The notes below the pieces were generated by a model that was not told the origin of the DNA, ran no database searches, and saw nothing but the letters and a program-made list of their open reading frames with translations. Source: a virus (Duplodnaviria; Heunggongvirae; Uroviricota; Caudoviricetes). Taken from it: a stretch of DNA of 37,387 nt. Shown here one piece after another: positions 1-37,100 of the stretch; within the stretch, counting starts at the first letter, position 1, and each line of letters begins with the position of its first letter. Both the position numbers and the translations under genes were made by a program. The stretch is from the IMG/VR virus record IMGVR_UViG_2563366935_000005; one strand, written 5' to 3'.

Positions 1-1053
1 TTACGGGGTAATGCCAACCGCTGCCGCCACTTTGTCGCCACTTGGCAGCGTTGCCAGAGGATTGAAACGGAGCGCCGTTTCCAGATGATCCGGTGCCAGA
101 TGTGCGTAACGCATAGTCATTTTTATATCGTGGTGTCCGAGAATTTTTTGTAAGGCCAGAATGTTTCCACCCGACATCATGAAGTGCGCCGCAAACGTAT
201 GGCGCAGAACGTGTGTGAGTTGACCGCGAGGGAGCACGATAGACGTTTTTTCCATCACGGATAAAAATTGAAAATAGCAGTCTGTGAAGAAATTGAACCC
301 ATCAAGCGCCATGATCTCTTCGTAAAGCTCTTTACTGATAGGGATGCTTCTGTTTTTCTTCCCCTTCGTTCTTACAAAGGTAATTCGGTATTTGGTCACC
401 TGTGAACGAGTAAGATTTACGGCTTCTCGCCAGCGTGCGCCTGTGCTTAAGCATATCTTAACTACCAGTGCCAGAATTGGGTCCTGACGTTTGCAATCAG
501 CCAGTAATTCAACAATCTGCTCATGGGTAAGCCATGCCATCTCTTTTTCTGCGATGGTGAATTTTCGCATGTTCTCCAGTGGGTTCGGATACGACCATTC
601 GCCCAGGCGGGATAGTTCGCTAAAAACACTACTTAGATAGCTTTGCTCCAGGTTAATGGTGACCGGGCTTGCTCCTTTCTTCCATTTCTCGCTGAAGTAG
701 ATCTCACCTGTCAGGCGTTTATCTCGATAGTGGGCAAACATTTTAGAGGTGAGATCAGTTGCAAGGGGATTGCCCAGAGCGTCAACCATCAGCAGCAATT
801 TGTCATAGACATGCTGCCCAGCAGTCAGTGATTTACCATGTAGTTTGAACCATAGCTCAACCACGTCTTTCAGTGTTCGACGATCCACTGATTCACCTAG
901 CCAGGGCTTTGCTTCGGTTTCTTCCATCGTGTGACGCTCAAAAGCCAGTGCTTCGCCTTTGGTGGCGAATTGTTTACGCACACGACGCCCACTACGTCCG
1001 GCGGGGTAACATTCGCAAAGCCATTTTCCTGTGGTGAGTTTTCGTACAGCCAT
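1..1053 (-). CDS. int: Tyrosine integrase (P2 Int-like), 350 aa
   Basis: Translation from ATG at 1051-1053 (MAVRKLTTGKWLCECYPAGRSGRRVRKQFATKGEALAFE...) resembles the P2 Int N-terminus; C-terminal HxxR...Y region (LRHTFAAHF...YAHL); GGAGG RBS 9 nt upstream; stop at 1-3. The ORF-track start at 1131 is probably an upstream over-extension. Confidence 0.9.
   Translation of the reverse strand: MAVRKLTTGKWLCECYPAGRSGRRVRKQFATKGEALAFERHTMEETEAKPWLGESVDRRTLKDVVELWFKLHGKSLTAGQHVYDKLLLMVDALGNPLATDLTSKMFAHYRDKRLTGEIYFSEKWKKGASPVTINLEQSYLSSVFSELSRLGEWSYPNPLENMRKFTIAEKEMAWLTHEQIVELLADCKRQDPILALVVKICLSTGARWREAVNLTRSQVTKYRITFVRTKGKKNRSIPISKELYEEIMALDGFNFFTDCYFQFLSVMEKTSIVLPRGQLTHVLRHTFAAHFMMSGGNILALQKILGHHDIKMTMRYAHLAPDHLETALRFNPLATLPSGDKVAAAVGITP
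21..41 (+). repeat. attL core candidate (ctgccgccactttgtcgccac), lying inside the 3' end of int
   Basis: 19/21 identity with 34535-34555; flanking sequence on both sides is unrelated; located where a P2-type attL core is expected, next to the int stop. Confidence 0.5.
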
Positions 1054-1241
1054 AAAAAATGCCCTCCAATAGAGAGCATTTTTACTGTATGTATAACCAG
1101 TGTCAATGTATGAAATCCTGCGACCATACATCTCACTGAAGCCATAATGAAGTAGGCTATTCTTTTTGCTATGTGATCATGTAACTTTTGCGGTTAACCT
1201 GTGGCTCATTTTTATTTTAGGCGCAGATATAAAAGCAAAAG

Positions 1242-1433
1242 TTATCGTGAGTTTTTAGTACAGATTTTTTTGGATTTACTAATAGTTCCATCATTGCAAA
1301 CGAATTTGCCATCAGAGGTACAGTGAGAAACACCTCCCTTTTTCCCTGAGCAGGGATAATTTCTAGCATAGGTAGCTAGTGGGTTTAATAACAAAGAACA
1401 TGACAAAACCACAAAAAATACCTTACCAAGCAT
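1242..1433 (-). CDS. Small exported cysteine-rich peptide (63 aa precursor), probable lysogeny-expressed moron
   Basis: Strong RBS (GGAGGA, 6-nt spacing) directly after the cI stop; hydrophobic N-terminus with an A-x-A-like cleavage motif (ATYA); four Cys in a ~39-aa mature part; AT-rich region between int and cI. Confidence 0.45.
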
Positions 1434-1448
1434 AATTTCCTCCCGGTA

Positions 1449-2018
1449 CTATTTAACATACTTGACTGTTAAACTTATAATTTTACCAATTATTTCAATG
1501 TCTTCTATCTTACATTCGAAGGCTCTGTTTCCACCCTCGACGAAGATTCTTCCACCGGGTAAACGAGTAATGTCACGGATCGTTATTTCGCCATCAATAC
1601 TTATTACCCATTTACCATCACGTATATCATCAAATTCCTTATCACAAATAAATTCAGAATTATTATCTGTGATTACAAAAAGATTCTTGAATGCCGACGG
1701 TAGAAATTCTCTATCGAAAATATAAAAACCGTCTTCACACAAGGCCCCATCAGATAATACATATTTAGCAACTTCCATAGTATTTGTATTACCTGAAGTT
1801 TGCTTTGAACCATGCCCGGTTGTGAGCCAATTAAGCGAGGTGCCTGTTTCAAGGGCGCACTGGATTACCCATTCTGCTGGGAATGAGTCACGCATGTAGC
1901 GTGTGGCGAGTGTACTTTTAGAGATTCCTAAATGATCGCACAACGCCTGTCGAGTCTTGAATCCATAAGCTTCTACCATGCGCTCTATGGCGCCTCGTCC
2001 GCCTTTCTCCAAATTCAT
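1449..2018 (-). CDS. cI: CI-type immunity repressor (186 CI-like), 189 aa
   Basis: Size and position between int and the divergent early operon match 186 CI; N-terminal HTH-like segment (TRQALCDHLGISKSTLATRYMR); ATG at 2016-2018 with GGAG RBS; stop TAG at 1449-1451. Confidence 0.8.
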   Translation of the reverse strand: MNLEKGGRGAIERMVEAYGFKTRQALCDHLGISKSTLATRYMRDSFPAEWVIQCALETGTSLNWLTTGHGSKQTSGNTNTMEVAKYVLSDGALCEDGFYIFDREFLPSAFKNLFVITDNNSEFICDKEFDDIRDGKWVISIDGEITIRDITRLPGGRIFVEGGNRAFECKIEDIEIIGKIISLTVKYVK

Positions 2019-2042
2019 GGTCACTCCAAGTGAACTTTTATC

Positions 2043-2071
2043 TTGACGATTTCACTGTGCGATCGTATGTT
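2043..2071 (+). promoter_or_regulatory. Candidate rightward lytic promoter (-35 TTGACG, 17-bp spacer, -10 TATGTT), flanked by TCAC/GTGAAC repeats that may be repressor half-sites
   Basis: Hexamers read directly in the cI/apl divergent intergenic region; GTGAAC at 2030-2035 and GTTCAC at 2078-2083 form an inverted pair around it. Confidence 0.45.
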
Positions 2072-2143
2072 TATGGTGTTCACAAAATACAAACGATCCG
2101 TATTCGTCCTGATTAATCATCATTAAACGAGGAATGTTGCATC

Positions 2144-2365
2144 ATGAGACCTAACATTTCAATCACTCTTACCACGCCTCATGTGACTATTGAACGCTAT
2201 AGCGAGCTGACAGGGCTATCCATCGATACCATCAATGATATGTTGGCTGATGGACGCCTTATCCGTCACCGTCTGCGCAAAGATAAAAAACGCGAAAAAG
2301 TGATGATCAACATAGCAGCAATGACCGTTGATGCGCTTTCAGAATGCAATCTAAACCTTAATTAG
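2144..2365 (+). CDS. Apl/Cox-like excisionase and transcriptional regulator, 73 aa
   Basis: First gene of the rightward early operon opposite cI; small basic protein with an HTH-like segment ([20 protein letters not shown]); RBS GAGGA upstream of the ATG. Confidence 0.55.
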
Positions 2366-2397
2366 TTCGATTCTGAAATACATCAGAGGCATTGACC

Positions 2398-2907
2398 ATG
2401 TTTGATTACCAAGTTTCCAAACATCCACATTTTGATGAAGCCTGTCGTGCATTTGCACTGCGCCACAATCTGGTGCAACTGGCAGAACGTGCAGGCATGA
2501 ATGTGCAGATTCTGCGGAACAAGCTGAACCCAGCTCAGCCTCATTTATTAACCGCACCAGAAATCTGGCTGCTTACCGATCTGACTGAAGATTCAACGCT
2601 GGTAGATGGTTTTCTGGCACAGATTCATTGTCTGCCATGTGTACCGATTAATGAGGTGGCAAAAGAGAAACTGCCACATTACGTCATGAGTGCAACCGCA
2701 GAGATCGGGCGTGTTGCTGCAGGTGCGGTGTCTGGCGATGTAAAAACCTGTGCCGGTCGTCGTGATGCTATCAGCAGCATTAACTCTGTAACACGACTGA
2801 TGGCGCTGGCGGCTGTTTCATTGCAGGCCCGTTTACAGGCTAATCCTGCGATGGCGAGTGCAGTTGATACCGTGACTGGCCTCGGTGCTTCATTTGGTTT
2901 GCTGTGA
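2398..2907 (+). CDS. CII-like transcriptional activator (186 CII-like), 169 aa
   Basis: Position after apl and length (169 aa from ATG 2398) match 186 CII; HTH-like region near the N-terminus; AGAGG RBS 8 nt upstream. The ORF-track start at 2392 is TTG. Confidence 0.55.
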
Positions 2908-2914
2908 GGTGCTT

Positions 2915-3115
2915 ATGCTGACGAAAGAACCATCATTTGCATCGCTGTTGGTTAAACAAAGCCCGGCAATGCATTACGGTCACGGCTGGATCATGGGGGA
3001 GGATGGTAAACGCTGGCATCCGTGCCGTTCACAAGATGAATTGCTGGCAGAACTATCTACGAAAAAACGGGGGAACAAATGGCTATTGAAGGCACTGCAG
3101 CAACTGTTCCATTAA
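2915..3115 (+). CDS. Small early protein (66 aa), possibly Fil-like
   Basis: ATG at 2915 with GAGGTG RBS immediately after the cII stop; the functional name is only positional (186 has fil after cII). Confidence 0.35.
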   Translation: MLTKEPSFASLLVKQSPAMHYGHGWIMGEDGKRWHPCRSQDELLAELSTKKRGNKWLLKALQQLFH

Positions 3116-3948: not shown

Positions 3949-4802
3949 GCACCATCCTGAAATGGGCGGGAAATAAAACCGCCATTATGCCAGAACTGAA
4001 AAAATACCTTCCTGCTGGCCCGCGACTGGTTGAACCTTTCGCGGGTTCCTGTGCTGTGATGATGGAAACGAATTATCCCAGCTATCTGGTTGCGGATATT
4101 AATCCTGATTTAATCAACCTCTATAAAAAGGTTGCCGCTGATTGTGAATCGTTTATATCTCGCGCCAGAGTTTTATTTGAGATCGCAAACAGGGAGGTGG
4201 CTTATTACAACATAAGGCAGGAGTTTAACTGCTCAACTGAAATTACTGATTTCATGAAAGCGGTATATTTCCTGTATCTCAATCGTCACGGTTACCGTGG
4301 TTTATGTCGCTATAACAAGAGCGGACATTTCAACATTCCCTACGGTAATTATAAAAATCCGTATTTCCCTGAAAAAGAACTTCGCACATTTGCAGAAAAA
4401 GCCCAGCGAGCAACGTTTATCTGCGCCAGCTTTGATGAAACGCTGACGATGTTGAAGGCGGGAGATGTGGTGTATTGCGATCCGCCATATGACGGTACGT
4501 TTTCCGGTTATCATACTGATGGTTTCACTGAAGATGACCAGTATCACCTGGCATCCGTTCTTGAACATCGGTCATCAGAAGGACATCCGGTCATTGTTTC
4601 TAACAGTGACACATCCCTGATCCGTTCGCTGTATCGCAATTTTACTCACCACTATATCAAGGTAAAACGCAGCATCGGTGTGGCAGCTGGCGAGGGTAAA
4701 TCAGCAACAGAAATCATTGCTGTTTCCGGGCCGCGCTGCTGGATGGGATTTGATTATTCGCGTGGCGTGGATAGTTCTGCCGTGTACGGAGTACGTGCAT
4801 GA
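3945..4802 (+). CDS. dam: DNA adenine methyltransferase (Dam-like N6-adenine MTase), 285 aa
   Basis: [12 protein letters not shown]-terminus, AdoMet motif PFAGSCAV and catalytic DPPY motif (VYCDPPYDG); ATGA overlaps with both neighbours. Confidence 0.85.
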
Positions 4803-7213
4803 GTCATGCCGATATGAACAACTGCTGCGGCTTTAACGAGGCTGCCGCAGCATTCTCATGGAACAGCCCGAAAAAGGCCATTAACCCTTATCTGGACCCG
4901 GCGGAAGTTGCGCCGGTTTCTACGCTTTCAAACCTGATCACTCTGTACGCTGCCGATAACGAGCAGGAACAGTTGCGCCGCGAGGCACTGAGTGATCAGG
5001 TCTGGGAGCGTTATTTCTTTAATGAATCACGTGATCCTGTCCAGCGCGAAATGGAGCAGGATAAGCTCATTAGCCGGGCAAAGCTGGCGCATGAGCAGCA
5101 GCGTTTTAATTCAGACATGGTCATTCTGGCGGACGTCAACGCCCAGCCTTCCCATATCAGCAAGCCGCTGATGCAACGTATTGAATACTTCAGCAGCCTG
5201 GGCAGGCCAAAGGCTTATTCCCGCTATTTACGTGAGACGATTAAGCCATGTCTGGAACGACTGGAGCATGTACGCGACAGTCAGCTATCTGCATCTTTTC
5301 GCTTTATGGCAAGCCATGAAGGGCTGGACGGCCTGCTGATCCTGCCTGAAATGAGTCAGGATCAGGTGAAACGCCTGTCCACCCTGGTAGCTGCGCATAT
5401 GAGTATGTGCCTTGATGCAGCTTGTGGTGATTTGTATGCCACCGATGACGTTAAGCCAGAAGAAATCCGCAAGACATGGGAAAAGGTGGCAGCGGAAACC
5501 CTGCGTCTGGATGTCATCCCACCTGCGTTTGAGCAACTCCGTCGGAAAAGAAACCGCCGTAAACCCGTGCCCTATGAACTCATTCCGGGTTCGCTGGCGC
5601 GTATGTTGTGCGCCGACTGGTGGTATCGGAAATTATGGAAGATGCGTTGCGAATGGCGGGAAGAGCAGTTGCGCGCTGTTTGCCTGGTCAGCAAAAAAGC
5701 ATCTCCTTATGTCAGCTATGAAGCCGTGATGCATAAACGTGAGCAGCGCCGTAAGTCGCTGGAGTTTTTCCGTTCTCATGAACTGGTGAACGAAGACGGC
5801 GACACGCTGGACATGGAGGATGTGGTAAACGCCAGCAGCAGCAACCCTGCGCATCGCCGCAATGAGATGATGGCCTGTGTTAAAGGTCTGGAGCTTATCG
5901 CGGAAATGCGCGGTGACTGCGCCGTTTTCTACACTATCACCTGTCCGTCGCGTTTCCATTCCACGCTAAATAACGGCAGACCAAACCCGACCTGGACAAA
6001 CGCGACGGTAAGACAAAGCAGCGATTATCTGGTCGGCATGTTTGCTGCATTTCGTAAGGCGATGCACAAAGCCGGGTTGCGCTGGTATGGCGTGCGGGTG
6101 GCTGAGCCGCATCATGATGGCACAGTTCACTGGCACCTGTTGTGTTTCATGCGCAAAAAAGACCGCCGTGCCATCACTGCATTACTGCGTAAGTTTGCCA
6201 TCCGTGAAGACCGCGAGGAGCTGGGCAATAACACTGGGCCGCGCTTTAAGTCTGAGTTGATTAACCCGCGCAAAGGAACGCCGACAAGCTACATCGCGAA
6301 ATATATCAGTAAGAACATTGACGGTCGTGGTCTGGCTGGCGAGATCAGCAAGGAAACGGGTAAATCTCTGCGTGATAACGCTGAATACGTGAATGCCTGG
6401 GCGTCTCTGCATCGTGTTCAGCAATTCCGCTTCTTTGGTATTCCGGGGCGTCAGGCTTACCGTGAACTTCGCTTGCTGGCTGGTCAGGCGGCAAGGCAAC
6501 AGGGTGACAAAAAAGCAGGTGCGCCGGTACTGGATAACCCGCGTCTTGATGCCATTCTGGCTGCTGCTGATGCTGGTTGTTTTGCCACCTACATCATGAA
6601 GCAGGGCGGCGTACTGGTTCCCCGTAAATATCACCTCATCAGAACCGCTTATGAAATCAACGAAGAGCCGACCGCCTATGGCGATCACGGCATTCGTATT
6701 TATGGCATCTGGTCACCCATTGCAGAGGGCAAGATCTGCACTCATGCAGTGAAGTGGAAAATGGTTCGTAAAGCCGTTGACGTTCAGGAGGCGGCAGCCG
6801 ACCAGGGCGCTTGCGCCCCTTGGACTCGTGGCAATAACTGTCCCCTTGCTGAAAATTTGTACCAACAAGGGAAAGACAAATCAGCTGATGGGGATACCAG
6901 AACGGATATCACCCGCATGGATGACAAGGAATTGCACGATTACCTGCACAGTATGAACAAAAAAGAGCGCCGGGAACTGGCTGCAAGGTTACGCCTGGTG
7001 AAACCGAAACGGCGTAGAGACTACAAACAGCGAATTACAGATCATCAGCGACAGCAGCTCGTCTATGAACTGAAGTCCAGAGGATTTGATGGCAGCGAGA
7101 AAGAGGTCGATTTACTCCTTCGCGGTGGCAGTATTCCGTCAGGAGCAGGCCTGCGTATCTTCTATCGGAACCAGCGTTTGCAGGAAGATGATAAGTGGCG
7201 GGATCTGTATTAA
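4799..7213 (+). CDS. A: Replication initiation protein A (rolling-circle nicking endonuclease, P2 gpA-like), 804 aa
   Basis: Large ORF at the end of the early operon; HUH-type motif [15 protein letters not shown] and [10 protein letters not shown] region; size similar to P2 A. Confidence 0.9.
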
Positions 7214-8004: not shown

Positions 8005-9204
8005 ATGTATCGTGTGTTGCTTTGGCAAAAAGGAGTTTTAGTGGACAACGGCTCAATCACCTTCTTTGATATTACTGCTTGTGGGTTTTATCGTTTAAAG
8101 AATAAACCCGAAGAGCTTGATTATAAATTCGGCGATCTTATGGGGGTTTTGGACGATTTAGAAGGGTGGCTCAAGGATAAAAATTTTGAGCAGACTCTCC
8201 CATGGAATAAAGAAGAACAACCTCTGCGAACACGAGTTTACAGTCGAGGCCTTGTGAGGGACAGCCAGACTAAAGATGCAGTAATTGTTTTATACCGTGA
8301 AGTGGGGAACGGTAACGGAATACATGGTATTAAGGTCGGTTCAAAAGTAAGTGGTGATAGTAAAGGAACCATTAGGGCGGGAAGAGAACATGGTGAGGAT
8401 AAAATAATTTGGGGTGAACCCTGCTATTACTGGATTATTCCTGAGTTGAATAAAATAGCATCAATCAGATTCCCCCATTCTTTCGCTGATACTTATCTCT
8501 TCGCACAATACTTCATTCAGCATGTAAATAATAATAGTAAGTTAGGTAAAAGAACGAAATCTAAGCGTACATTTGAATCAGCTAAGACCCCTGGTCGTTG
8601 TGTGGATGTCTACAATACTAAGTTTCAATATAAAGATGGCAAAAATGAGATAAACTGTATCTTCAAGTTTGTATTGGAAGAAACAAAACTTAAAGCCGCT
8701 GAGGAAAACTTTGAAAGGTTAAGGCATAAAATTACACACACATTGATAAAGGATACAACGGTAATAAACCAAAATGACACAAGGCAACCATTGTTGAAGC
8801 TAACAAGTGTAGCTTTAGCATCTCTGGTGGGTGAAGAAAAGCGTAATAAGCTTATTGGGGCACCTCCTGTTTTGGAGCGGCCTCGTAAAATTGAAGTTAA
8901 AATTGACGGTGCACCATCATCGGATGAGCTTCGAAATCTCTTCTCAATGAGAGGTGAAGAGTCTGAATGGGATGTGGGTTTTTTACTGGCTGATCGTGCT
9001 AATCCGGTTTGGCTCAGTAGCTATGTAGCCAGGACTAAACTTCCTCTTCAAGATTCGGATGGGTTTGAGCATTATTCAGCGCGTTTTTTACTGGATGAAA
9101 TAAACAAAATTCGTGATGATTTGATTAGTGAAGTAAAATATGCTGAGGAAGCATCCATTAAAGAATCTGAAGCTGCATCCACAAAAAAGATAGCGGAAGG
9201 TTGA
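8005..9204 (+). CDS. Hypothetical soluble protein (399 aa), first gene of a two-gene cargo cassette; candidate defence or abortive-infection sensor
   Basis: AT-rich ORF unrelated to P2 core genes; an alternative GTG start at 8041 has a strong AAGGAG RBS; stop TGA overlaps the ATG of the downstream membrane protein. Confidence 0.6.
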   Translation: MYRVLLWQKGVLVDNGSITFFDITACGFYRLKNKPEELDYKFGDLMGVLDDLEGWLKDKNFEQTLPWNKEEQPLRTRVYSRGLVRDSQTKDAVIVLYREVGNGNGIHGIKVGSKVSGDSKGTIRAGREHGEDKIIWGEPCYYWIIPELNKIASIRFPHSFADTYLFAQYFIQHVNNNSKLGKRTKSKRTFESAKTPGRCVDVYNTKFQYKDGKNEINCIFKFVLEETKLKAAEENFERLRHKITHTLIKDTTVINQNDTRQPLLKLTSVALASLVGEEKRNKLIGAPPVLERPRKIEVKIDGAPSSDELRNLFSMRGEESEWDVGFLLADRANPVWLSSYVARTKLPLQDSDGFEHYSARFLLDEINKIRDDLISEVKYAEEASIKESEAASTKKIAEG

Positions 9205-9205
9205 T

Positions 9206-9742
9206 ATGACAGAAACGGAAGGTTTGATAATAACAGTTGCAAAACAGCAGGCGATTAATTTTGTTGCTGTTGTTTTGTGCTGCGTTATAAGCTATTTTTC
9301 GTTCAAAAGTTTTTCCTATAATGATGCAAAAGATATTTTAGGTGCGCTTATAAATATTTCAGCATCTATATTCACTATTGTCGGTTTATGGGTCGGTTTT
9401 TTATATCCGAATGCAATGAATAGTATTGTTAAGGATGATGTAAGTTATATAAAAAATGAGCATGACTCACCAAGAATAGAGAAATTAGTTTATACAATAA
9501 TCACATCTGCTTGTGTTATGGCTGGGATTCTAATTTTCTTTTTGGTTAAGGCAGTGTTTTATGCATTACCTGTTTATCAAGCTAATAAAGACTTGTTTAA
9601 ATACATTGGTATTTTCTTCATTTACTTTATTAGCTGGATGCAATTAAAATGCGTTATGAGCCTGATTTTGAGTAATTTACATTTTGTTAATCACTTACAT
9701 GGACGTTTAGCAAAAGCGAAATTAGAACACTATGATGAATAA
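9206..9742 (+). CDS. Small polytopic membrane protein (178 aa, about four TM helices); candidate membrane effector of the cassette
   Basis: Four hydrophobic segments (about residues 17-33, 44-67, 94-121, 134-157); GGAAGG RBS; translationally coupled to the 399-aa ORF. Confidence 0.6.
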   Translation: MTETEGLIITVAKQQAINFVAVVLCCVISYFSFKSFSYNDAKDILGALINISASIFTIVGLWVGFLYPNAMNSIVKDDVSYIKNEHDSPRIEKLVYTIITSACVMAGILIFFLVKAVFYALPVYQANKDLFKYIGIFFIYFISWMQLKCVMSLILSNLHFVNHLHGRLAKAKLEHYDE

Positions 9743-10051: not shown

Positions 10052-11086
10052 ATGGATAAAAGATATCAGGTTTTTGTTAGTTCAACTTTTGCTGATCTTG
10101 AAGAAGAAAGACAGGAAGTAATGCAAGCACTGCTGGAGCTTGATTGTATGCCAGCAGGAATGGAATTATTTCCAGCAACAAATAGTGATCAGTGGAGTTT
10201 AATAAAAAAAATAATTGACGATAGTGATTATTATATTGTTATCTTGGCAGGGCGTTATGGTTCAATTGGTCCTGATGGAATAAGCTATACAGAAATGGAG
10301 TATCGTTATGCTTTGGAAACTGGTAAGCCAGTTATAGGTTTTATTCATAAAGATAAAAGTAACCTCCCCGCAAAACGTTGTGAGTCAAACCCTGAAGGCG
10401 TAGAAAAACTAAAGGCTTTCGAAGAGCTAGTTAAAACAAAATTATGTCGTTTTTGGGAGTCTCCTGCAGAATTAGGTAGCCAGGTTAGCAGAAGTTTGAT
10501 TAGACTAATTAAAGAATGTCCTGCAATTGGGTGGGTTAAAGGAAATTTAGTAACTAATGATGGTGATGCAAAGGAAATATTGAAATTAAAAAGGCGAATT
10601 GAGGAGCTTGAAAGTCAACTTGTATCAAGTATGACTGAAGCGCCTGCAGGTGCAGAAAAACTATCTCAAGGAGATGAGCTTTTTGAATTGGATTATGAAT
10701 TCTGTGTGTCGCCTACAGAATGGAGACATAATGGTGAAGAATATACCGATAAGGTCAAATTAAGCTGGAACGATATTTTTTCATATGTTTCGCCTTTGAT
10801 GATAGATGAGATAGTGGATGATAAGCTATATAGTGCTTTAAATAACTGTGTGCGAAATGCAGTTCAAGATATCATCTATGAGGATTTTAAAGATATGAAT
10901 TTATTATCTTTAAAAGTATCTAATTCTGATTTTCAAACAATAAAAGTGCAGTTTAGGGCGCTTGGGTTAATTATTAAAAGTGAAAAGAGTAGAAGTGTTA
11001 AAGATAAAGGTACTTATTGGACTTTAACACCGTATGGCGAAAATTTAATGACAACATTGAGAGCGATTAAAAAAACTTTGGTATAG
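10052..11086 (+). CDS. DUF4062-like N-terminal domain protein (344 aa) with an uncharacterised C-terminal region containing a coiled-coil-like segment; candidate single-gene defence protein
   Basis: N-terminus YQVFVSSTFADLEEERQEVMQALLELDCMPAGMELF...ILAGRYGS matches the DUF4062 pattern as I recall it; AT-rich; own promoter and terminator; not part of the P2 core gene set. Confidence 0.6.
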   Translation: MDKRYQVFVSSTFADLEEERQEVMQALLELDCMPAGMELFPATNSDQWSLIKKIIDDSDYYIVILAGRYGSIGPDGISYTEMEYRYALETGKPVIGFIHKDKSNLPAKRCESNPEGVEKLKAFEELVKTKLCRFWESPAELGSQVSRSLIRLIKECPAIGWVKGNLVTNDGDAKEILKLKRRIEELESQLVSSMTEAPAGAEKLSQGDELFELDYEFCVSPTEWRHNGEEYTDKVKLSWNDIFSYVSPLMIDEIVDDKLYSALNNCVRNAVQDIIYEDFKDMNLLSLKVSNSDFQTIKVQFRALGLIIKSEKSRSVKDKGTYWTLTPYGENLMTTLRAIKKTLV

Positions 11087-21872: not shown

Positions 21873-22228
21873 CGCTTTATAGCGGGATGAACAATACCAG
21901 CGGTAAAGCCATTACTGATATTGACCATCTGCGCCAGTCGGTGCGGGACATTCTGCTGACGCCGCAGGGTAGCCGCATTGCCCGTCGGGAATATGGTTCC
22001 CTGCTGTCGGCACTGATTGATCAGCCACAAAATCCGGCATTACGCCTGCAGGTTATGTCGGCTGTGTATGTGGCACTGAGTCGCTGGGAGCCACGGCTGG
22101 CGCTCGATTCCATCACTATTAACAGCAATTTTGACGGTTCAATGGTGGTGGAGCTGAGCGGGCGGCGTAATAACGGTGTGCCTGTTTCCCTTTCCGTATC
22201 AACAGGAGCAGAGAATGGCAGTGATTGA
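21869..22228 (+). CDS. W: Baseplate protein W (gp25-like), 119 aa
   Basis: Size and position; ATGA overlap with V. Confidence 0.85.
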   Translation: MTLYSGMNNTSGKAITDIDHLRQSVRDILLTPQGSRIARREYGSLLSALIDQPQNPALRLQVMSAVYVALSRWEPRLALDSITINSNFDGSMVVELSGRRNNGVPVSLSVSTGAENGSD

Positions 22229-23123
22229 CCTTTCGCAGTTGCCTGCGCCGCAGATTGTGGATGTGCCGGACTTTGAGACGCTGCTTGCCGAACGCAAGGC
22301 AGAATTTGTGGCGCTTCATCCGAAAGATGAGCAGGAAGCAGTGATGCGTACGCTGGAACTGGAATCTGAACCCGTCACCAAATTGTTGCAGGAGAACGCT
22401 TACCGTGAGTTGCTTCTGCGCCAGCGCATTAACGAAGCCGCGCAGGCGGTGATGGTGGCTTACGCGATGGGCGGCGATCTTGACCAGCTCGCTGCTAACT
22501 ACAACGTGAAACGCCTGACGGTGACACCTGCTGATGATGATGCTGTACCGCCCGTTGCGGCTGTGATGGAAAGTGATGAAGCGTTACGCCTGCGTGTGCC
22601 TGCAGCCTTTGAAGGGCTTTCTGTTGCTGGGCCAACTGCCGCTTATGAGTTTCATGCACGAAGCGCCGATGGTCGGGTGGCGGATGCCAGTGCAACCAGT
22701 CCGGCACCTGCAGAGGTGGTGCTGACAGTTCTTAGCCGCGAAGGCGACGGAACAGCAGAAAAAGACCTGCTGGATGTGGTGGAGAAAGCACTGAACAGTG
22801 AGAATGTCCGCCCGGTGGCTGACCGTCTGACGGTTCGCAGCGCGGAAATCATCCCGTACCGCGTGGAAGCCACCATTTTTCTCTATCCGGGACCGGAAGC
22901 AGAGCCGGTAATGGCAGCGGCAAAAGCCAGCCTGCAGAGGTACATTGCCAGTCAGACGCGGCTTGGTCGGGATATTCGCCGTAGCGCCATTTTTGCCGCG
23001 CTGCATGTTGAGGGTGTTCAGCGTGTGGAACTGGCTTCCCCGCAGGCGGACGTGGTCCTGAACAAAACGCAGGCGGCATCATGTACGCAGTGGAGCGTGA
23101 CTAACGGGGGAACGGATGAATAG
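22215..23123 (+). CDS. J: Baseplate protein J, 302 aa
   Basis: ATG at 22215 with AGGAG RBS gives 302 aa, the same length as P2 J. Confidence 0.85.
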   Translation: MAVIDLSQLPAPQIVDVPDFETLLAERKAEFVALHPKDEQEAVMRTLELESEPVTKLLQENAYRELLLRQRINEAAQAVMVAYAMGGDLDQLAANYNVKRLTVTPADDDAVPPVAAVMESDEALRLRVPAAFEGLSVAGPTAAYEFHARSADGRVADASATSPAPAEVVLTVLSREGDGTAEKDLLDVVEKALNSENVRPVADRLTVRSAEIIPYRVEATIFLYPGPEAEPVMAAAKASLQRYIASQTRLGRDIRRSAIFAALHVEGVQRVELASPQADVVLNKTQAASCTQWSVTNGGTDE

Positions 23124-23721
23124 TCTGCTGCCACCGGGTTCAACGCCACTGGAGCGCCGACTGGCGCAAACCTGCAACGGGATTTCTGATCTGCAGGTGT
23201 CACTGCGTGACTTGTGGAATCCGGCAACCTGTCCGGTCAGTTTCCTGCCTTATCTCGCCTGGGCGTTCTCTGTGGATCGCTGGGACGAGGGCTGGACAGA
23301 AAGCGTCAAACGCCAGGTAGTGAAGGATGCTTTTTATATTCATCAGCACAAAGGAACCACCAGTGCCGTACGGCGGGTGGTGGAGCCGTTCGGCTTCCTG
23401 ATCCGCATTATTGAGTGGTGGCAGACCGGAGAAACACCGGGCACGTTTCGCCTGGACATTGGTGTGCAGGACCAGGGCATCACTGAAGATACCTATCTGG
23501 AACTTGAGCGACTGATAAGCGATGCCAAACCATGTAGCCGTCACATGATCGGCATGTCCATCAATCTGCAGACCAGCGGCCCGCATTGGGTGGGAGCCGT
23601 CAGTTATCTTGGCGAAGAAATCACGATCTATCCGTATATCAACGAAACAATTATTTCCGGCGGCACCGCGCATGAAGGCGGGGCGGTCCATGTTATTGAC
23701 ACAATGAGAGTGAATCCATGA
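23116..23721 (+). CDS. I: Baseplate/tail protein I, 201 aa
   Basis: Position between J and H; overlapping starts typical of the P2 baseplate operon. Confidence 0.8.
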   Translation: MNSLLPPGSTPLERRLAQTCNGISDLQVSLRDLWNPATCPVSFLPYLAWAFSVDRWDEGWTESVKRQVVKDAFYIHQHKGTTSAVRRVVEPFGFLIRIIEWWQTGETPGTFRLDIGVQDQGITEDTYLELERLISDAKPCSRHMIGMSINLQTSGPHWVGAVSYLGEEITIYPYINETIISGGTAHEGGAVHVIDTMRVNP

Positions 23722-25115
23722 GCACAAAATTTTATACCCTGCTGACGGATATTGGCGCGGCGAAACTTGCCAGCGCCGCCGCGCTCGGTGTGCCGCTAAA
23801 AATTACCCATATGGCGGTGGGCGATGGCGGCGGAGCATTGCCAACGCCGGACGCAAAGCAGACGGCACTGGTAAATGAGAAACGCCGGGCTGCGCTGAAT
23901 ATGCTCTATATCGACCCGCAGAACAGCAGCCAGATTATTGCTGAACAGGTGATCCCTGAAAATGAGGGGGGTTGGTGGATACGTGAAGTGGGTCTGTTTG
24001 ATGAGTCCGGGGCATTGATTGCCGTAGGCAACTGCCCGGAAAGCTATAAGCCGCAACTGGCTGAAGGCAGCGGGCGCACCCAGACCGTGCGCATGGTGCT
24101 GATTACCAGCAGTACGGACAATATCACCCTGAAAATCGACCCTGCTGTAGTGCTGGCAACCCGTAAATACGTGGATGATGAAGTCCTGGAATTAAAGCTG
24201 TATGTGGATGACCAGATGAGAAACCACATTGCCGCACAAGATCCTCATACCCAGTATGCGCAGAAACATAATCCGACATTTACCGGAGAACCAAAAGCGC
24301 CGACGCCTGCAGCAGGAAATAACACCACGCGGATTGCGACCACTGAGTTTGTTCAGGCCGCTATTACTGCTCTGATTAACGGTGCGCCAGCCACGCTGGA
24401 CACACTGAAAGAAATTGCCGCAGCCATTAACAATGACCCGAAATTCAGTACCACCATTAACAATGCGCTGGCACTAAAAGCGCCGCTGTCGAGTCCGGCA
24501 CTCACCGGAACGCCAACAGCACCTACTGCGGCGCAGTCGGTCAACAATACACAGATTGCCACTACGGCTTTTGTGAAATCGGCGATTGCAGGAATGGTGG
24601 GTTCTGCACCTGCGGCACTGGATACACTGAACGAACTGGCGGCGGCACTGGGGAATGATCCGAACTTTGCCACGACAATGCTTAATGCGCTGGCAGGTAA
24701 ACAACCGCTGGACAATACGCTTACCAATTTGAGTGGAAAGGATGTAGCTGGTCTTCTCACATACCTTGGTTTGGGAGAATTATCTCTGGCTGGCACTGCA
24801 TCGGGTGTCATTGGTCTGAATGGGTATGTAACGATTCCGTTAATTATTTCAGGTTCCCGGAGAACACTGATTATTCAGTGGGGGCAGGCGAGATTTGGTG
24901 GGTCTGGTGGTGAAGATGCCGGATATCTTAATGATTTTCCTTTTGCCTTTCCGTCAGCATGTAATGGGGTGATAGTTAGTCATGTGGGGTATACACCTTC
25001 AGGCGCAGGAATCCTGTCGGCTTCTGCAATTACATCAAATCAGTTCCGCGGTTTTTCAAGCATAGCGACTGCTGCAAACGCTGTATTTGGTCGTTATATC
25101 GCTATAGGGGTGTAA
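23718..25115 (+). CDS. H: Tail fibre protein H (constant N-terminus plus currently expressed variable C-terminus), 465 aa
   Basis: P2 H-like N-terminus (MSTKFYTLLTDIGAAKLA...); two internal repeats (TRIATTEFVQAAITALINGAPATLDTLKEIAAAINNDPKF and TQIATTAFVKSAIAGMVGSAPAALDTLNELAAALGNDPNF); contains an invertase crossover site near codon 350. Confidence 0.85.
   Translation: MSTKFYTLLTDIGAAKLASAAALGVPLKITHMAVGDGGGALPTPDAKQTALVNEKRRAALNMLYIDPQNSSQIIAEQVIPENEGGWWIREVGLFDESGALIAVGNCPESYKPQLAEGSGRTQTVRMVLITSSTDNITLKIDPAVVLATRKYVDDEVLELKLYVDDQMRNHIAAQDPHTQYAQKHNPTFTGEPKAPTPAAGNNTTRIATTEFVQAAITALINGAPATLDTLKEIAAAINNDPKFSTTINNALALKAPLSSPALTGTPTAPTAAQSVNNTQIATTAFVKSAIAGMVGSAPAALDTLNELAAALGNDPNFATTMLNALAGKQPLDNTLTNLSGKDVAGLLTYLGLGELSLAGTASGVIGLNGYVTIPLIISGSRRTLIIQWGQARFGGSGGEDAGYLNDFPFAFPSACNGVIVSHVGYTPSGAGILSASAITSNQFRGFSSIATAANAVFGRYIAIGV
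24754..24779. repeat. Hin/Gin-type recombination site 1 (ttctcacatacc tt ggtttgggagaa), left end of the invertible segment
   Basis: 26-bp imperfect palindrome resembling hix/gix sites; its right arm plus centre (ttggtttgggagaa) is repeated in inverted orientation at 26596-26609. Confidence 0.5.
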
Positions 25116-25116
25116 T

Positions 25117-25554
25117 ATGTTTTATAGTCCATCTTTAAACATTTTTGTGAATCCTGCACTTAAGGATGATTACATTAATGCAAATTCATGGCCAGATGAT
25201 GCTCTGGCTATCAGTGATGATGTTTATAATGAATTTGCAATAAATACGCCCCCAGATGGCAAAATTCGTGTTGCAGGAGAAAATGGATTACCCACATGGG
25301 CACTAATACCTCCACCATCACATGAAGAACTTATTCAACAGGCAGAATCAGAAAGGCAATTATTGCTTAATCTGGCCAACGAATACATGAACAGTAAACA
25401 ATGGCCCGGTAAAGCCGCTATTGGTCGTCTGAAAGACGAGGAACTGGCGCAATATAATTTGTGGCTGGATTACCTGGACGCACTGGAGCTGGTTGATACC
25501 TCCAGTGGGCCAGATATTGAATGGCCTACGCCTCCGGCAGTTCAGGCCAGATGA
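25117..25554 (+). CDS. G: Tail fibre assembly chaperone (G/Tfa-like), 145 aa
   Basis: Immediately after H; conserved Tfa C-terminal region (NLWLDYLDALELVDTSSGPDIEWP). Confidence 0.75.
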   Translation: MFYSPSLNIFVNPALKDDYINANSWPDDALAISDDVYNEFAINTPPDGKIRVAGENGLPTWALIPPPSHEELIQQAESERQLLLNLANEYMNSKQWPGKAAIGRLKDEELAQYNLWLDYLDALELVDTSSGPDIEWPTPPAVQAR

Positions 25555-26128
25555 CATCCGGCGCTGTGCTGGTATCTGTTGCCGTCACCGCGTCAATGTA
25601 ATCCAGCACAGTGTTAAGTCGGGTGGTCTCTGCCTGCATCAGCTGCCGCCCGGCCTGCAATTTAAGTTGAATCAGACTGATGGAAGCCATTGCAGTATTA
25701 ATCAGTGACTGACGCTGTACTTCTGCCGCGTCTACTGCGGCGCTATGCTGTGCCTCAGTATCGGTCACCCATTTCTTACCATCCCATTTATCGAATGGCG
25801 TTAACGGGGCGATAGTGGTTGTATTTTCAGGATAATCACCCGGAGCTGTGATTTCTTTGGCGTCTCCCGTTTCGGTGTTATAGACGATTTCACCGCGATG
25901 GTCTGGCACATATTCCCATGAGTTTAAATCCATCGAACGGCAGATAGCATAACCCGCCTTATGTATACCAGGTTCATCCAGACAGGAATATGCTGGGATA
26001 CCGACACCAATGGCAAGATATTCATTTGAAGTAGAAATATATTCCCGAGTTTTACCATCATAGTTATAGACGGTAATATTCCCCGCCTTCGTGGCAATAA
26101 GCTCGCTATTTAATACGGCGTTATCCAT
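25526..26128 (-). CDS. Alternative tail fibre assembly chaperone (Tfa'), inside the invertible segment, 200 aa
   Basis: Opposite strand, converging on G; C-terminus (NTVLDYIDAVTATDTSTAPDVIWPELPEA) parallels that of G. Confidence 0.7.
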   Translation of the reverse strand: MDNAVLNSELIATKAGNITVYNYDGKTREYISTSNEYLAIGVGIPAYSCLDEPGIHKAGYAICRSMDLNSWEYVPDHRGEIVYNTETGDAKEITAPGDYPENTTTIAPLTPFDKWDGKKWVTDTEAQHSAAVDAAEVQRQSLINTAMASISLIQLKLQAGRQLMQAETTRLNTVLDYIDAVTATDTSTAPDVIWPELPEA

Positions 26129-26649
26129 TATGCAGCCCTCACGATATAGTTAAATGCAATATTTCGTGGACGGGTTTCACTCCCGCCAGTATTACCGATA
26201 CTCCCTCGTGAATGAAGTGTCGGTGATGGGATCAGACTCCCTCCTGTATTTGTGGCATCAAGTCCCCGTCCTTGTGTGTATGTCTTTTTGAAAATCGTAG
26301 CCAGTTCCCATTCATCTTTTGTGTCGTAACCATCATTGGCAACAACAATATGGCGGTGTTTTTCCAGCATCCCTGTCTGAATGCTCAATAAAACACGTCC
26401 TGCATCAATACCGCGCCCGTCATCCCAGCCACGAATAAACTCACCACGTAAATCAGGCAATTTATTTGTCGGATAAGCCTTTGCCAGTTCCGGGTATTCT
26501 TCAGCAGAAAAATCCGCACCGTTGCATTTCAGCCAGCCTGTTGGCGGTGTGGCTGAAGGCCATGGAACAGGCACACCAACAGGTAATGCAGAGCCTTCTC
26601 CCAAACCAACGTTTAAGAAAATGCAGCGATTACGACTAACTGGCATCAT
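26128..26649 (-). CDS. Alternative tail-fibre C-terminal receptor-binding segment (H'), expressed only after inversion fuses it to H
   Basis: Shares the GLGE junction residues with H at the crossover; tail-collar-like motifs (LKCNGADFSAEEYPELAKAY...LPDLRGEFIRGWDDGRGIDAGR); has no promoter or constant N-terminus of its own in this orientation. Confidence 0.65.
   Translation of the reverse strand: MMPVSRNRCIFLNVGLGEGSALPVGVPVPWPSATPPTGWLKCNGADFSAEEYPELAKAYPTNKLPDLRGEFIRGWDDGRGIDAGRVLLSIQTGMLEKHRHIVVANDGYDTKDEWELATIFKKTYTQGRGLDATNTGGSLIPSPTLHSRGSIGNTGGSETRPRNIAFNYIVRAA
26596..26621. repeat. Hin/Gin-type recombination site 2 (ttctcccaaacc aa cgtttaagaaaa), right end of the invertible segment
   Basis: Inverted copy of the site-1 arm; located at the 5' end of H' and just upstream of the invertase gene. 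Confidence 0.5.
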
Positions 26650-26676
26650 CCCCGGTTTTTATTCAGGAGATTGATC

Positions 26677-36722: not shown

Positions 36723-37100
36723 GTGAAACATAAACAACGTTGGGCGGGGGCAATCTGCTGTTTTGTCCTCTTCATTGTGGTGTGTCTTTTTCTGGCGACG
36801 CACATGAAAGGCGCTTTTCGGGCTGCCGGGCATCCTGAAATCGGTTTGCTATTTTTCATTCTTCCTGGTGCAGTTGCCAGCTTCTTTTCACATCGTAGAG
36901 AAGTCCTGAAACCTCTGTTTGGCGCAATGCTGGCGGCACCCTGTTCGATGCTCATTATGCGGCTGTTTTTTTCACCGACGCGCTCATTCTGGCAAGAGCT
37001 GGCATGGTTATTAAGTGCGGTGTTCTGGTGTGCGCTGGGGGCATTGTGTTTCTTATTTATCAGTAGTTTGTTTAAACCACAGCACAGAAAAAATCAATAA
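36723..37100 (+). CDS. ybjM: Inner membrane protein YbjM, 125 aa
   Basis: GTG start with AGGAGG RBS; hydrophobic 125-aa protein at the ybjL/grxA neighbourhood as in E. coli. Confidence 0.8.
   Translation: MKHKQRWAGAICCFVLFIVVCLFLATHMKGAFRAAGHPEIGLLFFILPGAVASFFSHRREVLKPLFGAMLAAPCSMLIMRLFFSPTRSFWQELAWLLSAVFWCALGALCFLFISSLFKPQHRKNQ

Follow-up and report, generated by a model that had tools for sequence, protein, structure and literature searches.

A short reading frame lies between the repressor gene cI and the integrase gene int of a 186-like prophage: is it a gene, to what kind does it belong, and what might its product do for a lysogen? The prophage was found together with the host genes ybjL and ybjM in a 37,387-nucleotide stretch of DNA (IMG/VR record IMGVR_UViG_2563366935_000005), the whole of which is called the window here. 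A preliminary description had read the frame, from its letters alone, as coding for a small cysteine-rich exported peptide with a role in lysogenic conversion or superinfection exclusion.

The gene and its immediate surroundings

The gene order in the window is cI, ydcA, int, with all three genes on the minus strand (Table 1), the int start codon having been picked by comparison with relatives. The preliminary description had reported a 63-aa reading frame with a strong ribosome-binding site, co-oriented with cI, beginning 15 nt past the cI stop and lying in an AT-rich block, and all of these points held: the translation agrees, the cI stop TAG (1449-1451) and the ydcA ATG (1431-1433) are exactly 15 nt apart (1434-1448), the Shine-Dalgarno sequence reads GGAGG, and the reading frame has 35.9% G+C, where the window as a whole has 50.5%. 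The AT-rich block extends past the reading frame, as the 188-nt gap between ydcA and int has 36.2% G+C and the 3' half of cI has 33.3%. The block was also said to be absent from the int-C junction of P2, and indeed the 115 bp that separate C from int in P2 hold no gene; the proper comparator, however, is not P2 but its closer relative phage 186, where cI and int overlap. Neither P2 nor 186 has ydcA. At the cI-ydcA junction a terminator-like site was looked for and none was seen. As read from the sequence, then, the coupling of ydcA to cI is tight, and the 15-nt gap, the strong Shine-Dalgarno sequence and the missing terminator-like site make expression of ydcA from the lysogenic transcript the natural reading.

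Table 1. Coordinates of the features in and around the ydcA-family gene of the window
Feature	Position	Strand	Remarks and basis
Integrase gene int	1..1053	minus	350 aa from MAVRKL start; Pfam Int_N 3.4e-32, Phage_integrase 1.1e-21
Non-coding ydcA-int spacer	1054..1241	minus	188 nt
Hairpin and T-run	1054-1083	minus	contains int Shine-Dalgarno (1062-1067)
Promoter-like site	-35 at 1101-1106, -10 at 1078-1083	minus	predicted from sequence
LexA-box-like CTG-N10-CAG	1085-1100	minus	overlaps promoter-like site; predicted from sequence
Stem-loop at ydcA stop	1182-1244	minus	sequence features
ydcA-family gene	1242..1433	minus	63 codons and TAA stop at 1242-1244; ORF list and translation, NF007463, phrog_6000, PF27300, PGAP name
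Mature basic domain, 40 aa, four conserved Cys	1245..1364	minus	alignments, charge, AlphaFold2, Foldseek
Sec-type signal peptide, residues 1-23	1365..1433	minus	predicted signal peptidase I cut after Thr-Tyr-Ala23; hydrophobicity profile and family conservation
Shine-Dalgarno GGAGG	1439..1443	minus	5 nt 5' of ydcA ATG, within cI-ydcA spacer; sequence reading
186-type cI repressor gene	1449..2024	minus	directly 5' of ydcA, same operon; Pfam Phage_CI_repr 2.8e-33, Phage_CI_C 2.7e-27

A phage-borne branch of the YdcA family

The window protein matched the NCBIfam model NF007463 with 114.6 bits against a cut-off of 93 (E 1.3e-33) and the PHROG family phrog_6000 at E 3e-34, and the PGAP product name is "YdcA family protein". 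The Pfam family PF27300 "YdcA" is newer than the Pfam release that we searched and is known here as an annotation precomputed for a protein identical to ours (P0001). The older release holds no model for the peptide, and its one GULLO2-like match, at E 0.076, was set aside as chance; weak PDB matches to Pin-II plant proteinase inhibitors (E 0.18-1.8) were likewise taken as noise from the cysteine pattern. With NF007462, the equivalog model of E. coli K-12 YdcA, the score was 68.5 bits (E 4e-19), below the cut-off of 118. Judging from these scores, the window protein is a member of the phage-borne subfamily NF007463 of a named but uncharacterised family, and not a new kind of gene, and it is a paralogue of the chromosomal YdcA, not its orthologue. 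The members of the family (PRK10040 models NF007462 and NF007463; PF27300; PHROG 6000) are built like the window protein, with a signal peptide followed by a four-cysteine core of about 35 aa, and share with it the motif PCSGxKGG...FVCNDG.S.SKK.C. They differ in setting, as YdcA of E. coli K-12 is chromosomal and the window protein is encoded in a prophage lysogenic operon.

Short reading frames are frequent in the region, with 41 of at least 30 aa within 4 kb, and on that count alone this one could have arisen by chance in an AT-rich spacer. The conservation data refute such a reading, which is now scarcely credible: the profile matches reach 1e-33, the family comprises at least 470 clusters at 50% identity, and the position after cI is conserved. 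The pattern of change points the same way. Across 82 near-identical loci we counted four synonymous changes and one non-synonymous change, the latter in the signal peptide, and dN was 0.03 against a copy in E. coli (L083) and 0.016 against one in Yersinia (L091), with synonymous sites saturated in both comparisons and the core nearly invariant. This saturation leaves dN/dS without a numeric value for most pairs. These alignments strongly support very strong purifying selection on the mature domain.

Signal peptide and mature domain

The N-terminus had been called signal-peptide-like, and this was borne out. It has a lysine at position 4, a hydrophobic core over residues 5-16 and Thr-Tyr-Ala at positions -3 to -1 of a conserved Ala-x-Ala-type site, so that export is predicted from the hydrophobicity and the cleavage-site pattern. 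Among the 150 best family representatives, the -1 residue is Ala in 130 and the -3 residue is Ala, Val, Ser or Thr in 141. For the mature part the preliminary description was right about the four cysteines (C28, C38, C46 and C58) but not quite about the length, which is 40 aa rather than about 39 when the cut falls after Ala23; its pI is 9.7 and its net charge about +7 (+6.8). In the same 150 representatives C28 and C46 are each retained in 149, C38 in all 150 and C58 in 148. Every residue of the core motif PCSGxKGG[IV]xHC-x(3-5)-F[VI]CxDG[ST]xSxSK[KR]xC is present in the window protein, and AlphaFold2 gave pLDDT values of 82-90 across residues 31-60. It is thus strongly supported at the level of alignments that the family has a conserved Sec-type signal peptide, an Ala-x-Ala site and four invariant cysteines, and the evidence supports a genuine gene for a predicted exported, cysteine-rich small protein.

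A fifth cysteine, C12, lies inside the signal peptide. The stretch V-L-S-C at residues 9-12 loosely matches a relaxed lipobox, and it could be imagined that the protein is lipid-anchored in the outer membrane and masks a receptor there, in the manner of Cor or Llp. We reject this as highly improbable on grounds of conservation: C12 is not conserved and many relatives have no cysteine in that column, those that do have one carry Phe, Ile or Val at -1, which a lipobox disallows, and the Ala-x-Ala site at residues 21-23 is kept across the family.

Distribution of the gene

If the peptide has a function in prophages, as the preliminary description held, relatives should occur at the int/cI junction of others, and they do: ydcA directly follows cI in diverged 186/HP-like prophages of E. 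coli, Yersinia, Hafnia and Haemophilus, and its product has the same four cysteines. The gap between cI and ydcA is correspondingly small, being 15 nt in the window, 17 nt in Hafnia and 23 nt in the E. coli prophage L083, and in the Haemophilus phage HP2, where ydcA has gone unannotated, its start codon overlaps the cI stop. The cI-ydcA-int region was found at a query coverage of at least 80% in 592 of 5426 complete E. coli genomes (~11%), that is, in about one in nine. A megablast search of positions 1000-2100 against a phage collection returned as its sole match the start of int in Klebsiella phages, which indicates that the sequenced phage isolates are without this cI-ydcA module.

The wider family is found on 493 viral contigs, in phages of Moraxella, Acinetobacter, Haemophilus and Pseudomonas, on small mobilizable plasmids (3.9-5.4 kb), and at chromosomal sites outside prophages, as in E. 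coli K-12 (ydcA), Moraxella bovoculi and the P0050 loci. In Moraxellaceae and Pasteurellaceae, ydcA is accompanied by a gene for a membrane-anchored partner, and in HP2 the gene after ydcA encodes an exported OB-fold protein. The 188-nt gap beyond ydcA in the window holds no remnant of that membrane partner or of a KAP NTPase, and there is no second YdcA copy in the window.

Defence genes at the cI-int junction

Roughly half of the species-representative loci with a 186-type cI (about 16 of 32) bear cargo between cI and int, and in relatives of the prophage this cargo includes PD-Lambda-1, PD-Lambda-5, HEC-01 and PDC-S20, the last of which directly follows YdcA in E. coli L083. The position agrees with hotspots published for P2-like phages, namely the cI-int defence hotspot of K139-like Vibrio phages (Rousset et al. 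2022, PMC9122126) and a minor hotspot between integrase and primase (NAR 2026, PMC13586616). YdcA differs from the defence systems at these sites in being far smaller and in not being recognised as a defence gene; a search of PADLOC-DB 2.0 with the peptide gave no defence model at E up to 0.01. It is also usually the item nearest to cI, and the other cargo follows.

The closest parallel in position is glo of Vibrio phage K139, in which the order is cI, orf2, glo, int and whose genome record annotates Glo as periplasmic and "involved in phage exclusion"; glo has also been called a periplasmic, immunity gene (PMC4870250). Like YdcA, Glo is a small Sec-exported protein encoded in the cI-int slot of the lysogenic operon of a P2-related (Peduoviridae) phage. 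Unlike YdcA, it has 137 aa, is not cysteine-rich and follows orf2 instead of cI, and exclusion is recorded, by the annotation of the K139 record, for Glo only, with nothing comparable for YdcA. The primary study of Glo is that of Nesper et al. (1999). Homology between the two was rejected, a single two-sequence BLASTP comparison having given E 0.17 over 30 residues. Other envelope proteins encoded by phages or prophages, namely Sim of P1, Sp and Imm of T4, Cor and Llp, also stop an infection once the phage has adsorbed; Sim is processed and resides in the periplasm, and Cor and Llp, both lipoproteins, mask FhuA. To our knowledge none of these is related to YdcA in sequence or size, and Cor and Llp differ from the window protein further in that the latter has no conserved lipobox.

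Similarity to Dis2 of Legionella

The only relative with a known location came from the structure databases. A phmmer search of the PDB matched Dis2 (Lpg0823) at E 3.2e-5 with both of its lobes aligned, the YdcA family profile matched it at E 4.5e-5, and the top PDB match in Foldseek was 7muc_AN, again Dis2, with a probability of 0.98 and 38% identity; moreover, a Dis2-like fragment (P0227) itself bears PF27300. Each lobe aligns with the YdcA core, cysteines included, over GG[IV]..C...G..VCN[DN]G..S, and Dis2 and the window protein are both predicted to have a Sec signal peptide. The difference is that Dis2 consists of two tandem lobes with five disulfides, and Dis2-like sequences have ten cysteines over the two lobes, while the window protein amounts to one lobe, with four mature cysteines. 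Dis2 has been described as Legionella-specific and without obvious homologues (PMC12716638). It is in fact a tandem duplication of a widespread domain, and the link provides the YdcA family with its first experimental structure and cellular location. Cryo-EM placed Dis2 in the periplasm, showed its five disulfides and allowed it to be modelled from residue 39/40 (PMC8486379), which agrees with the predicted export of YdcA; it is a stoichiometric, 13-copy, outer-membrane-proximal part of the Dot/Icm core complex (PMC8486379, PMC12716638), where, on the rim of the outer-membrane cap, it touches DotC, DotD and DotK and not DNA (PMC12716638).

Fusions to nucleases

In about 7 of the 150 best family representatives the YdcA domain, placed directly behind the signal peptide, is fused to a nuclease: Endonuclease_NS in three proteins, SNase in two and a PLD-type nuclease in one; the remaining case is a fusion to HNH, for which the HNH match is weak. 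The fusions are equally compatible with YdcA as an anchoring or folding module. When a nuclease fusion was searched against plasmids, the nuclease domain alone was matched, which indicates that the fusion is not a common plasmid gene. The net charge of about +7, the fusions and the OB-fold neighbour in HP2 would together be consistent with a link to DNA or another polyanion, and the fusions make a role in nucleic-acid binding a concrete, testable hypothesis.

What the protein might do

The ORF encodes a YdcA-family pre-protein, and in the explanation that we favour, with a probability of about 0.4 for the whole of it, it serves the 186-like prophage as a functional accessory ("moron") gene. 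It can be envisioned that ydcA is transcribed and translated together with cI from the lysogenic promoter, and that the pre-protein would accordingly be made continuously in lysogens, exported by Sec and cut after Ala23. In the periplasm the mature part would be oxidised to a strongly basic mini-domain of 40 residues with two disulfides, presumably with the fold of one lobe of Dis2. This free domain could bind a polyanion, most plausibly DNA, or else a complex near the outer membrane, and once bound it might make it harder for the DNA of a competing phage to enter, and possibly for DNA arriving by conjugation or transformation. If every lysogen makes the protein in constant proportion to the repressor, it would be a good candidate for a cheap, constitutive envelope barrier or for a fitness factor.

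That the protein acts as an envelope superinfection-exclusion or defence factor, resembling the periplasmic Glo of K139 and Sim of P1, has about one chance in three by our analysis. What backs this proposal is context, namely the defence cargo at the cI-int junction and the corresponding position of Glo in K139. A hotspot implicates its genes by association, such sites also bear non-defence cargo, and the many chromosomal members outside prophages favour a general envelope role over a phage-specific one. Should the peptide exclude phages, an effector of 40 residues would offer a minimal system for studying the passage of DNA across the periplasm. A bolder version of this proposal, which we consider doubtful, is that the YdcA core is an unrecognised periplasmic or extracellular module for binding DNA or polyanions, which targets four unrelated kinds of secreted nuclease and is duplicated in Dis2, and whose free 40-residue form, encoded by phages and small plasmids and co-expressed with the repressor, traps or misroutes foreign DNA in the periplasm and thereby blocks superinfecting phage, conjugation or natural transformation. 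If true, the free domain would be among the smallest stand-alone anti-entry effectors known. Further points against the favoured proposal itself are that the peptide matches no PADLOC model, that phage DNA normally crosses the periplasm within a protected conduit, and that the partners that Dis2 contacts are proteins rather than DNA.

The strongest competitor, though it is less likely than exclusion, is a factor for host fitness or lysogenic conversion, in which the prophage adds one more copy of an envelope protein of the housekeeping type, which raises the lysogen's tolerance to acid, organic acids or envelope stress and has no direct effect on other phages. E. coli has a chromosomal paralogue in ydcA, close enough to the window protein for the NF007462 match given above, and many members of the family sit at stable chromosomal sites. 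Deletion of ydcA renders E. coli W sensitive to 300 mM 3-hydroxypropionate (PMC7642389), and the same paper cites an up-regulation of ydcA at pH 5 under the control of YdcI. Nevertheless, the sensitivity is the sole reported phenotype and is indirect, being suppressed by deletion of yieP (PMC7642389), and a fitness role leaves unexplained both the second copy beside cI in several phage lineages, also found on 4-kb plasmids, and the fact that neighbouring cargo at the cI-int junction mostly consists of anti-phage systems.

A different kind of role is suggested by Dis2, which is a machine component touching DotC, DotD and DotK. The mini-domain might dock on a machine associated with the outer membrane, either the host's own or one brought in by an incoming element, for example a type IV or type II secretion system, a pilus or a lipoprotein complex, and modulate it, with altered conjugation, competence or receptor availability as the outcome. 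The sequence and fold matches, the membrane-anchored partner that travels with the gene in Moraxellaceae and Pasteurellaceae, and the UniRef name "conjugal transfer protein" on some members would all fit, although that name has no traceable evidence behind it. Both the docking and the choice of such targets seem to us unlikely, since Dis2 has two lobes and five disulfides and is dispensable for the structure of its machine, the window has neither a partner gene nor a remnant of one, and no family of a type IV secretion system of the Dot/Icm or another type was found among the 13 window ORFs scanned with Pfam. Far less probable again is a bacteriocin-like peptide, that is, a small cationic disulfide-bonded secreted toxin for which the membrane-anchored neighbour in other hosts would be the immunity protein. 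The mature peptide is of a suitable size and pI and probably has two disulfides, a cassette of peptide and membrane protein is carried on the mobilizable 3.9-5.4 kb plasmids, and the nuclease fusions recall the domain layout of nuclease bacteriocins. With an ordinary Sec leader and no encoded route across the outer membrane, though, the peptide would get no further than the periplasm; neither a partner nor an immunity gene accompanies it in the E. coli prophage, stable single-gene copies are common on chromosomes, and Dis2 is a structural protein.

The spacer between ydcA and int

The non-coding spacer between ydcA and int carries several predicted elements of its own (Table 1), and an Rfam scan of positions 1-3000 gave nothing meaningful. 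The promoter-like site and the LexA-box-like sequence are kept 5' of int in other cargo-bearing prophages.

A conserved ydcA family gene between cI and int

The left end of the window is the lysogeny region of a 186-like (Peduoviridae) prophage, its first base being the exact edge of the int stop codon, and the host genes at the right end, ybjL-like and ybjM, place the prophage end near 34.3-34.7 kb. The preliminary description of a short cysteine-rich ORF between cI and int, with a 15-nt gap, a strong ribosome-binding site and an AT-rich setting, agrees with the sequence read directly. The ATG, preceded by GGAGG at a distance of 5 nt, lies exactly 15 nt past the cI stop codon. The G + C content is 35.9% in the ORF and 36.2% in the 188-nt spacer to int; the window as a whole has 50.5%, and the 3' half of cI (33.3%) also belongs to the AT-rich block. 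The four cysteines counted in the mature part are there, although a fifth, non-conserved, has to be added inside the signal peptide.

Short ORFs are common in this region, so length alone is no proof of a gene, and that proof comes from conservation. The window protein exceeds the cut-off of NCBIfam NF007463 (114.6 bits against 93) and matches PHROG 6000 at 3e-34. Across 5.8 billion proteins a search gave 63 relatives, almost all with precomputed Pfam PF27300 (YdcA), and a profile run against 1.84 billion cluster representatives gave 470 clusters at E ≤ 1e-3, 260 of them at E ≤ 1e-10. Each of the four cysteines of the mature part is conserved in 148-150 of the best 150 representatives, and the motif around them, PCSGxKGG[IV]xHC...F[VI]CxDG[ST]xSxSK[KR]xC, is nearly invariant, while the N-terminal 20-odd residues vary freely with hydrophobicity retained. 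The 82 near-identical prophage copies show four synonymous changes and a single amino-acid change (A20T, in the signal peptide); in the core, dN is 0.03 against the copy of a different E. coli prophage and 0.016 against a Yersinia prophage copy, with synonymous sites saturated. The ORF is a genuine gene and its conservation makes a chance ORF unlikely. It adds a member to a family that is recognised but uncharacterised, already bears the family label in RefSeq, and is not categorically new.

Coordinates of the features discussed (L numbers are loci examined in other genomes: L083, E. coli; L091, Yersinia; L110, Pectobacterium)
Feature	Locus	Coordinates	Strand	Remarks
int	window	1-1053	minus	Pfam Int_N + Phage_integrase
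Hairpin + T-run	window	1054-1083	minus	3' arm is the int Shine-Dalgarno
TTGACA-17-AAAAAT	window	-35 1101-1106, -10 1078-1083	minus	sigma-70-like, just upstream of int
CTG-N10-CAG palindrome	window	1085-1100	minus	LexA-box-like, overlaps promoter
Stem-loop	window	1182-1244	minus	AACUUUUGC...GCAAAAGUU
ydcA family ORF	window	1242-1433	minus	63 aa
186-type cI	window	1449-2024	minus	Pfam Phage_CI_repr + Phage_CI_C
TTAACA-17-TATAAT	window	1453-1481	plus	11/12 matches
apl-like small gene, cII, Dam-type methylase, gene A replication protein	window	after cI	plus	cII: Phage_CP76
PDC-M18 pair	window	8005-9204, 9206-9742	plus	A 9.7e-31, B 2.8e-18
DUF4062 protein	window	10052-11086	plus
Presumed tail genes	window	22176-25554	plus	long ORFs
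Two ORFs	window	25526-26649	minus
Serine recombinase	window	26671-27243	plus	Resolvase + HTH_7, 190 aa
ybjL-like	window	34768-36453	minus	Asp-Al_Ex + TrkA_C
ybjM	window	36723-37100	plus
cI-int cargo	L083	5198-6529
cI-int cargo	L104	4090-5831
cI-int cargo	L108	4085-5761
cI-int cargo	L109	3238-4914		PD-Lambda-1 called by sequence likeness to L108, not by its own scan
cI-int cargo	L110	4114-6534
int-upstream cassette	L083	~6560-6611
int-upstream cassette	L091	~4225-4274
int-upstream cassette	L107, L108, L109, L110, L117
YdcA-partner cassette	L098	728-904 + 966-1697
YdcA-partner cassette	L099	2267-2440 + 1281-2240	minus
YdcA-partner cassette	L096	3438-3617 + 3626-4264
YdcA-partner cassette	L088	4001-4171 + 4186-4884
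YdcA-partner cassette	L130	4052-4879 + 4902-5096
YdcA-nuclease fusion list	L133	813-1799

The cI-int junction as a cargo and defence hotspot

Region 1000-2100 of the window occurs in 973 of 5426 complete E. coli genomes (coverage at least 80% in 592), where PGAP labels it 'phage repressor protein CI | YdcA family protein (or hypothetical protein) | phage integrase'. Diverged ydcA genes are likewise the first gene after cI in E. coli, Yersinia, Hafnia and Haemophilus elements, so that homologues with the conserved cysteines are present at this position in related prophages. The order is cI, YdcA, KAP NTPase, int in another E. coli prophage (67% identity to the window protein); cI, YdcA, int in Yersinia (71%); cI, YdcA, a 347-aa protein, int in Hafnia (64%); and cI, YdcA, an exported OB-fold protein, int in Haemophilus phages HP2 and S2 (62% over residues 19-60), where the ydcA ORF is unannotated, has 60 codons and overlaps the cI stop with its ATG. 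In phage 186 cI and int overlap, and P2 has an empty 115-bp spacer, the block being absent from the classic P2 junction as first described. Among 32 species-representative genomes with a 186-type cI, cI abuts int in about 12, varied cargo of 0.5-3 kb intervenes in about 16, and YdcA is present in three.

The junction is a cargo and defence hotspot, since the neighbouring cargo in Enterobacterales 186-like prophages matches the PADLOC models PD-Lambda-1, PD-Lambda-5 (A and B), HEC-01 (A and B) and PDC-S20, the last being the KAP NTPase encoded after YdcA in E. coli L083. Published work is in agreement: a cI-int hotspot is described in K139-like Vibrio phages (PMC9122126), and P2-like prophages have a minor hotspot between integrase and primase (PMC13586616). 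In phage K139 itself the slot holds glo, annotated as periplasmic and involved in phage exclusion, but Glo is not homologous to YdcA.

YdcA also occurs outside the slot, in the tail-gene block of Moraxella Mcat phages, in Acinetobacter phages, on mobilizable plasmids of 3.9-5.4 kb and at stable chromosomal sites. A recurrent two-gene cassette pairs it with a ~210-320-aa protein of unassigned role in Moraxella phages and the M. bovoculi chromosome, and also on tiny Acinetobacter and Psychrobacter plasmids and in a Pasteurellaceae prophage at the cI-int junction. From a hydrophobic stretch in the alignment we judge the partner to be membrane-anchored at its N-terminus. The partner at locus L130 matches that of an A. 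pittii plasmid (E 4e-10) and gave no match to the Psychrobacter partner in a pairwise test; the partner gene was not found in the E. coli window.

Export and the mature peptide

The signal-peptide-like N-terminus noted earlier is upheld by its features, namely Lys4, a 12-residue hydrophobic core and Thr-Tyr-Ala ahead of Arg24, and by their conservation: position -1 is Ala in 130 of the best 150 representatives and -3 is A, V, S or T in 141, in keeping with the signal peptidase I rule. The protein would be exported by Sec, cleaved after Ala23 and closed by two disulfides. Reading Cys12 in 'VLSC' as a lipobox would make it a lipoprotein, but this was rejected as unlikely, Cys12 not being conserved and relatives having disallowed -1 residues. 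The predicted mature product has 40 residues, 4.29 kDa, a pI of 9.7 and a net charge of about +7, and would be a free, basic, periplasmic mini-domain; that such a peptide acts as a bacteriocin is unlikely. Independent support for export comes from the probable homologue Dis2, a Legionella Dot/Icm component seen in the periplasm and modelled from residue 39/40 with all cysteines in disulfides (PMC8486379).

Nuclease fusions and the relationship to Dis2

In longer proteins among the best 150 representatives the signal peptide is followed immediately by the YdcA domain, and another domain comes behind it. The cluster representatives P0181, P0182 and P0201 are fused to Endonuclease_NS (for P0181 a precomputed Pfam annotation, 'YdcA, Endonuclease_NS', is independent of our own scan), P0120 and P0226 to staphylococcal nuclease (SNase), P0184 to a PLD-type nuclease and P0206, by a weak match, to HNH. 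Other partners are DUF4124, low-complexity linkers and a small Cys-rich basic domain (PBCV_basic_adap-like), the last a frequent C-terminal partner. The strongest functional hint at hand is that nucleases of four unrelated folds have the same small basic module at the N-terminus, which points to putative binding of the DNA substrate or anchoring in the envelope.

The PDB search gave one match only, to chain AN of 7MUC and 7MUD, which is Dis2 (Lpg0823), deposited as 'neurogenic locus notch protein homolog' (E 3.2e-5; 4.5e-5 with the family profile). In the AlphaFold2 model of the window protein mean pLDDT is 76, and 82-90 over residues 31-60; Foldseek places Dis2 on top (probability 0.98, E 0.07, 38% identity across 39 columns), all other matches having a probability of at most 0.13. 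A Dis2-like metagenomic fragment bears PF27300. On this sequence, profile and structural evidence homology is probable, not certain. Dis2, a protein of two lobes and five disulfides located beside the outer membrane, contributes 13 copies to the Dot/Icm outer-membrane cap, contacts DotC, DotD and DotK, is dispensable for machine assembly, and has been called Legionella-specific without obvious homologues (PMC8486379, PMC12716638). The YdcA core aligns with both lobes, cysteines included; the data indicate that Dis2 is a putative tandem YdcA domain. For the YdcA family, which is very widely distributed on mobile elements, there is now a structural relative, together with a binding hypothesis that can be tested.

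Proposed role

The site scan of the region found no terminator-like site between cI and ydcA, from which we infer that ydcA would be co-transcribed, and translation-coupled, with cI in lysogens. We give about one chance in three to YdcA being a constitutive envelope-level exclusion factor that, bound to DNA or to an outer-membrane-proximal complex, would hinder the entry of foreign DNA; K139 Glo and P1 Sim would then be analogous, not homologous. The earlier interpretation, an exported lysogenic-conversion or superinfection-exclusion peptide, is supported in part.

Two main rivals compete with exclusion. YdcA may be a fitness or stress factor of the lysogen, like the chromosomal YdcA, whose gene is reported to be acid-induced and whose deletion sensitises E. 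coli W to 3-hydroxypropionate (PMC7642389); or it may be a Dis2-like adaptor on an envelope machine.

The spacer to int and other cargo in the window

The predicted fold of the 188-nt spacer is much more stable than those of shuffled controls (MFE -58.4 kcal/mol, z -4.8). Its long stem-loop starts at the ydcA stop codon, has no T-run, and could be an mRNA-stabilising 3' structure or the remnant of an insertion event. The promoter and LexA-box-like palindrome just upstream of int recur in other cargo-bearing prophages, the box being near-consensus in Pectobacterium L110 (AACTGTATTTATATACAGTA) and Yersinia L091; variation in the adjoining hairpin includes one compensatory pair. Conservation of promoter, palindrome and hairpin suggests that int may be insulated from the cI-ydcA transcript and possibly SOS-controlled, in which case cI-ydcA would effectively be a two-gene lysogenic unit. 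The cassette may combine an SOS-controlled int promoter with a terminator, or a Shine-Dalgarno occluder, against read-through from cI and cargo. Another promoter-like site, which lies in the AT-rich block and is antisense to cI at its 3' end, is probably due to chance, because shuffled sequence contains at least as many such sites in total.

Further cargo, a two-gene pair matching PADLOC candidate PDC-M18 followed by a DUF4062 protein, lies beyond the gene A replication gene, at the P2 hotspot already known between the genes for primase and portal. The serine recombinase stands beside two minus-strand ORFs, and its position after the presumed tail genes suggests a Cin/Gin-type invertible tail-fibre segment.
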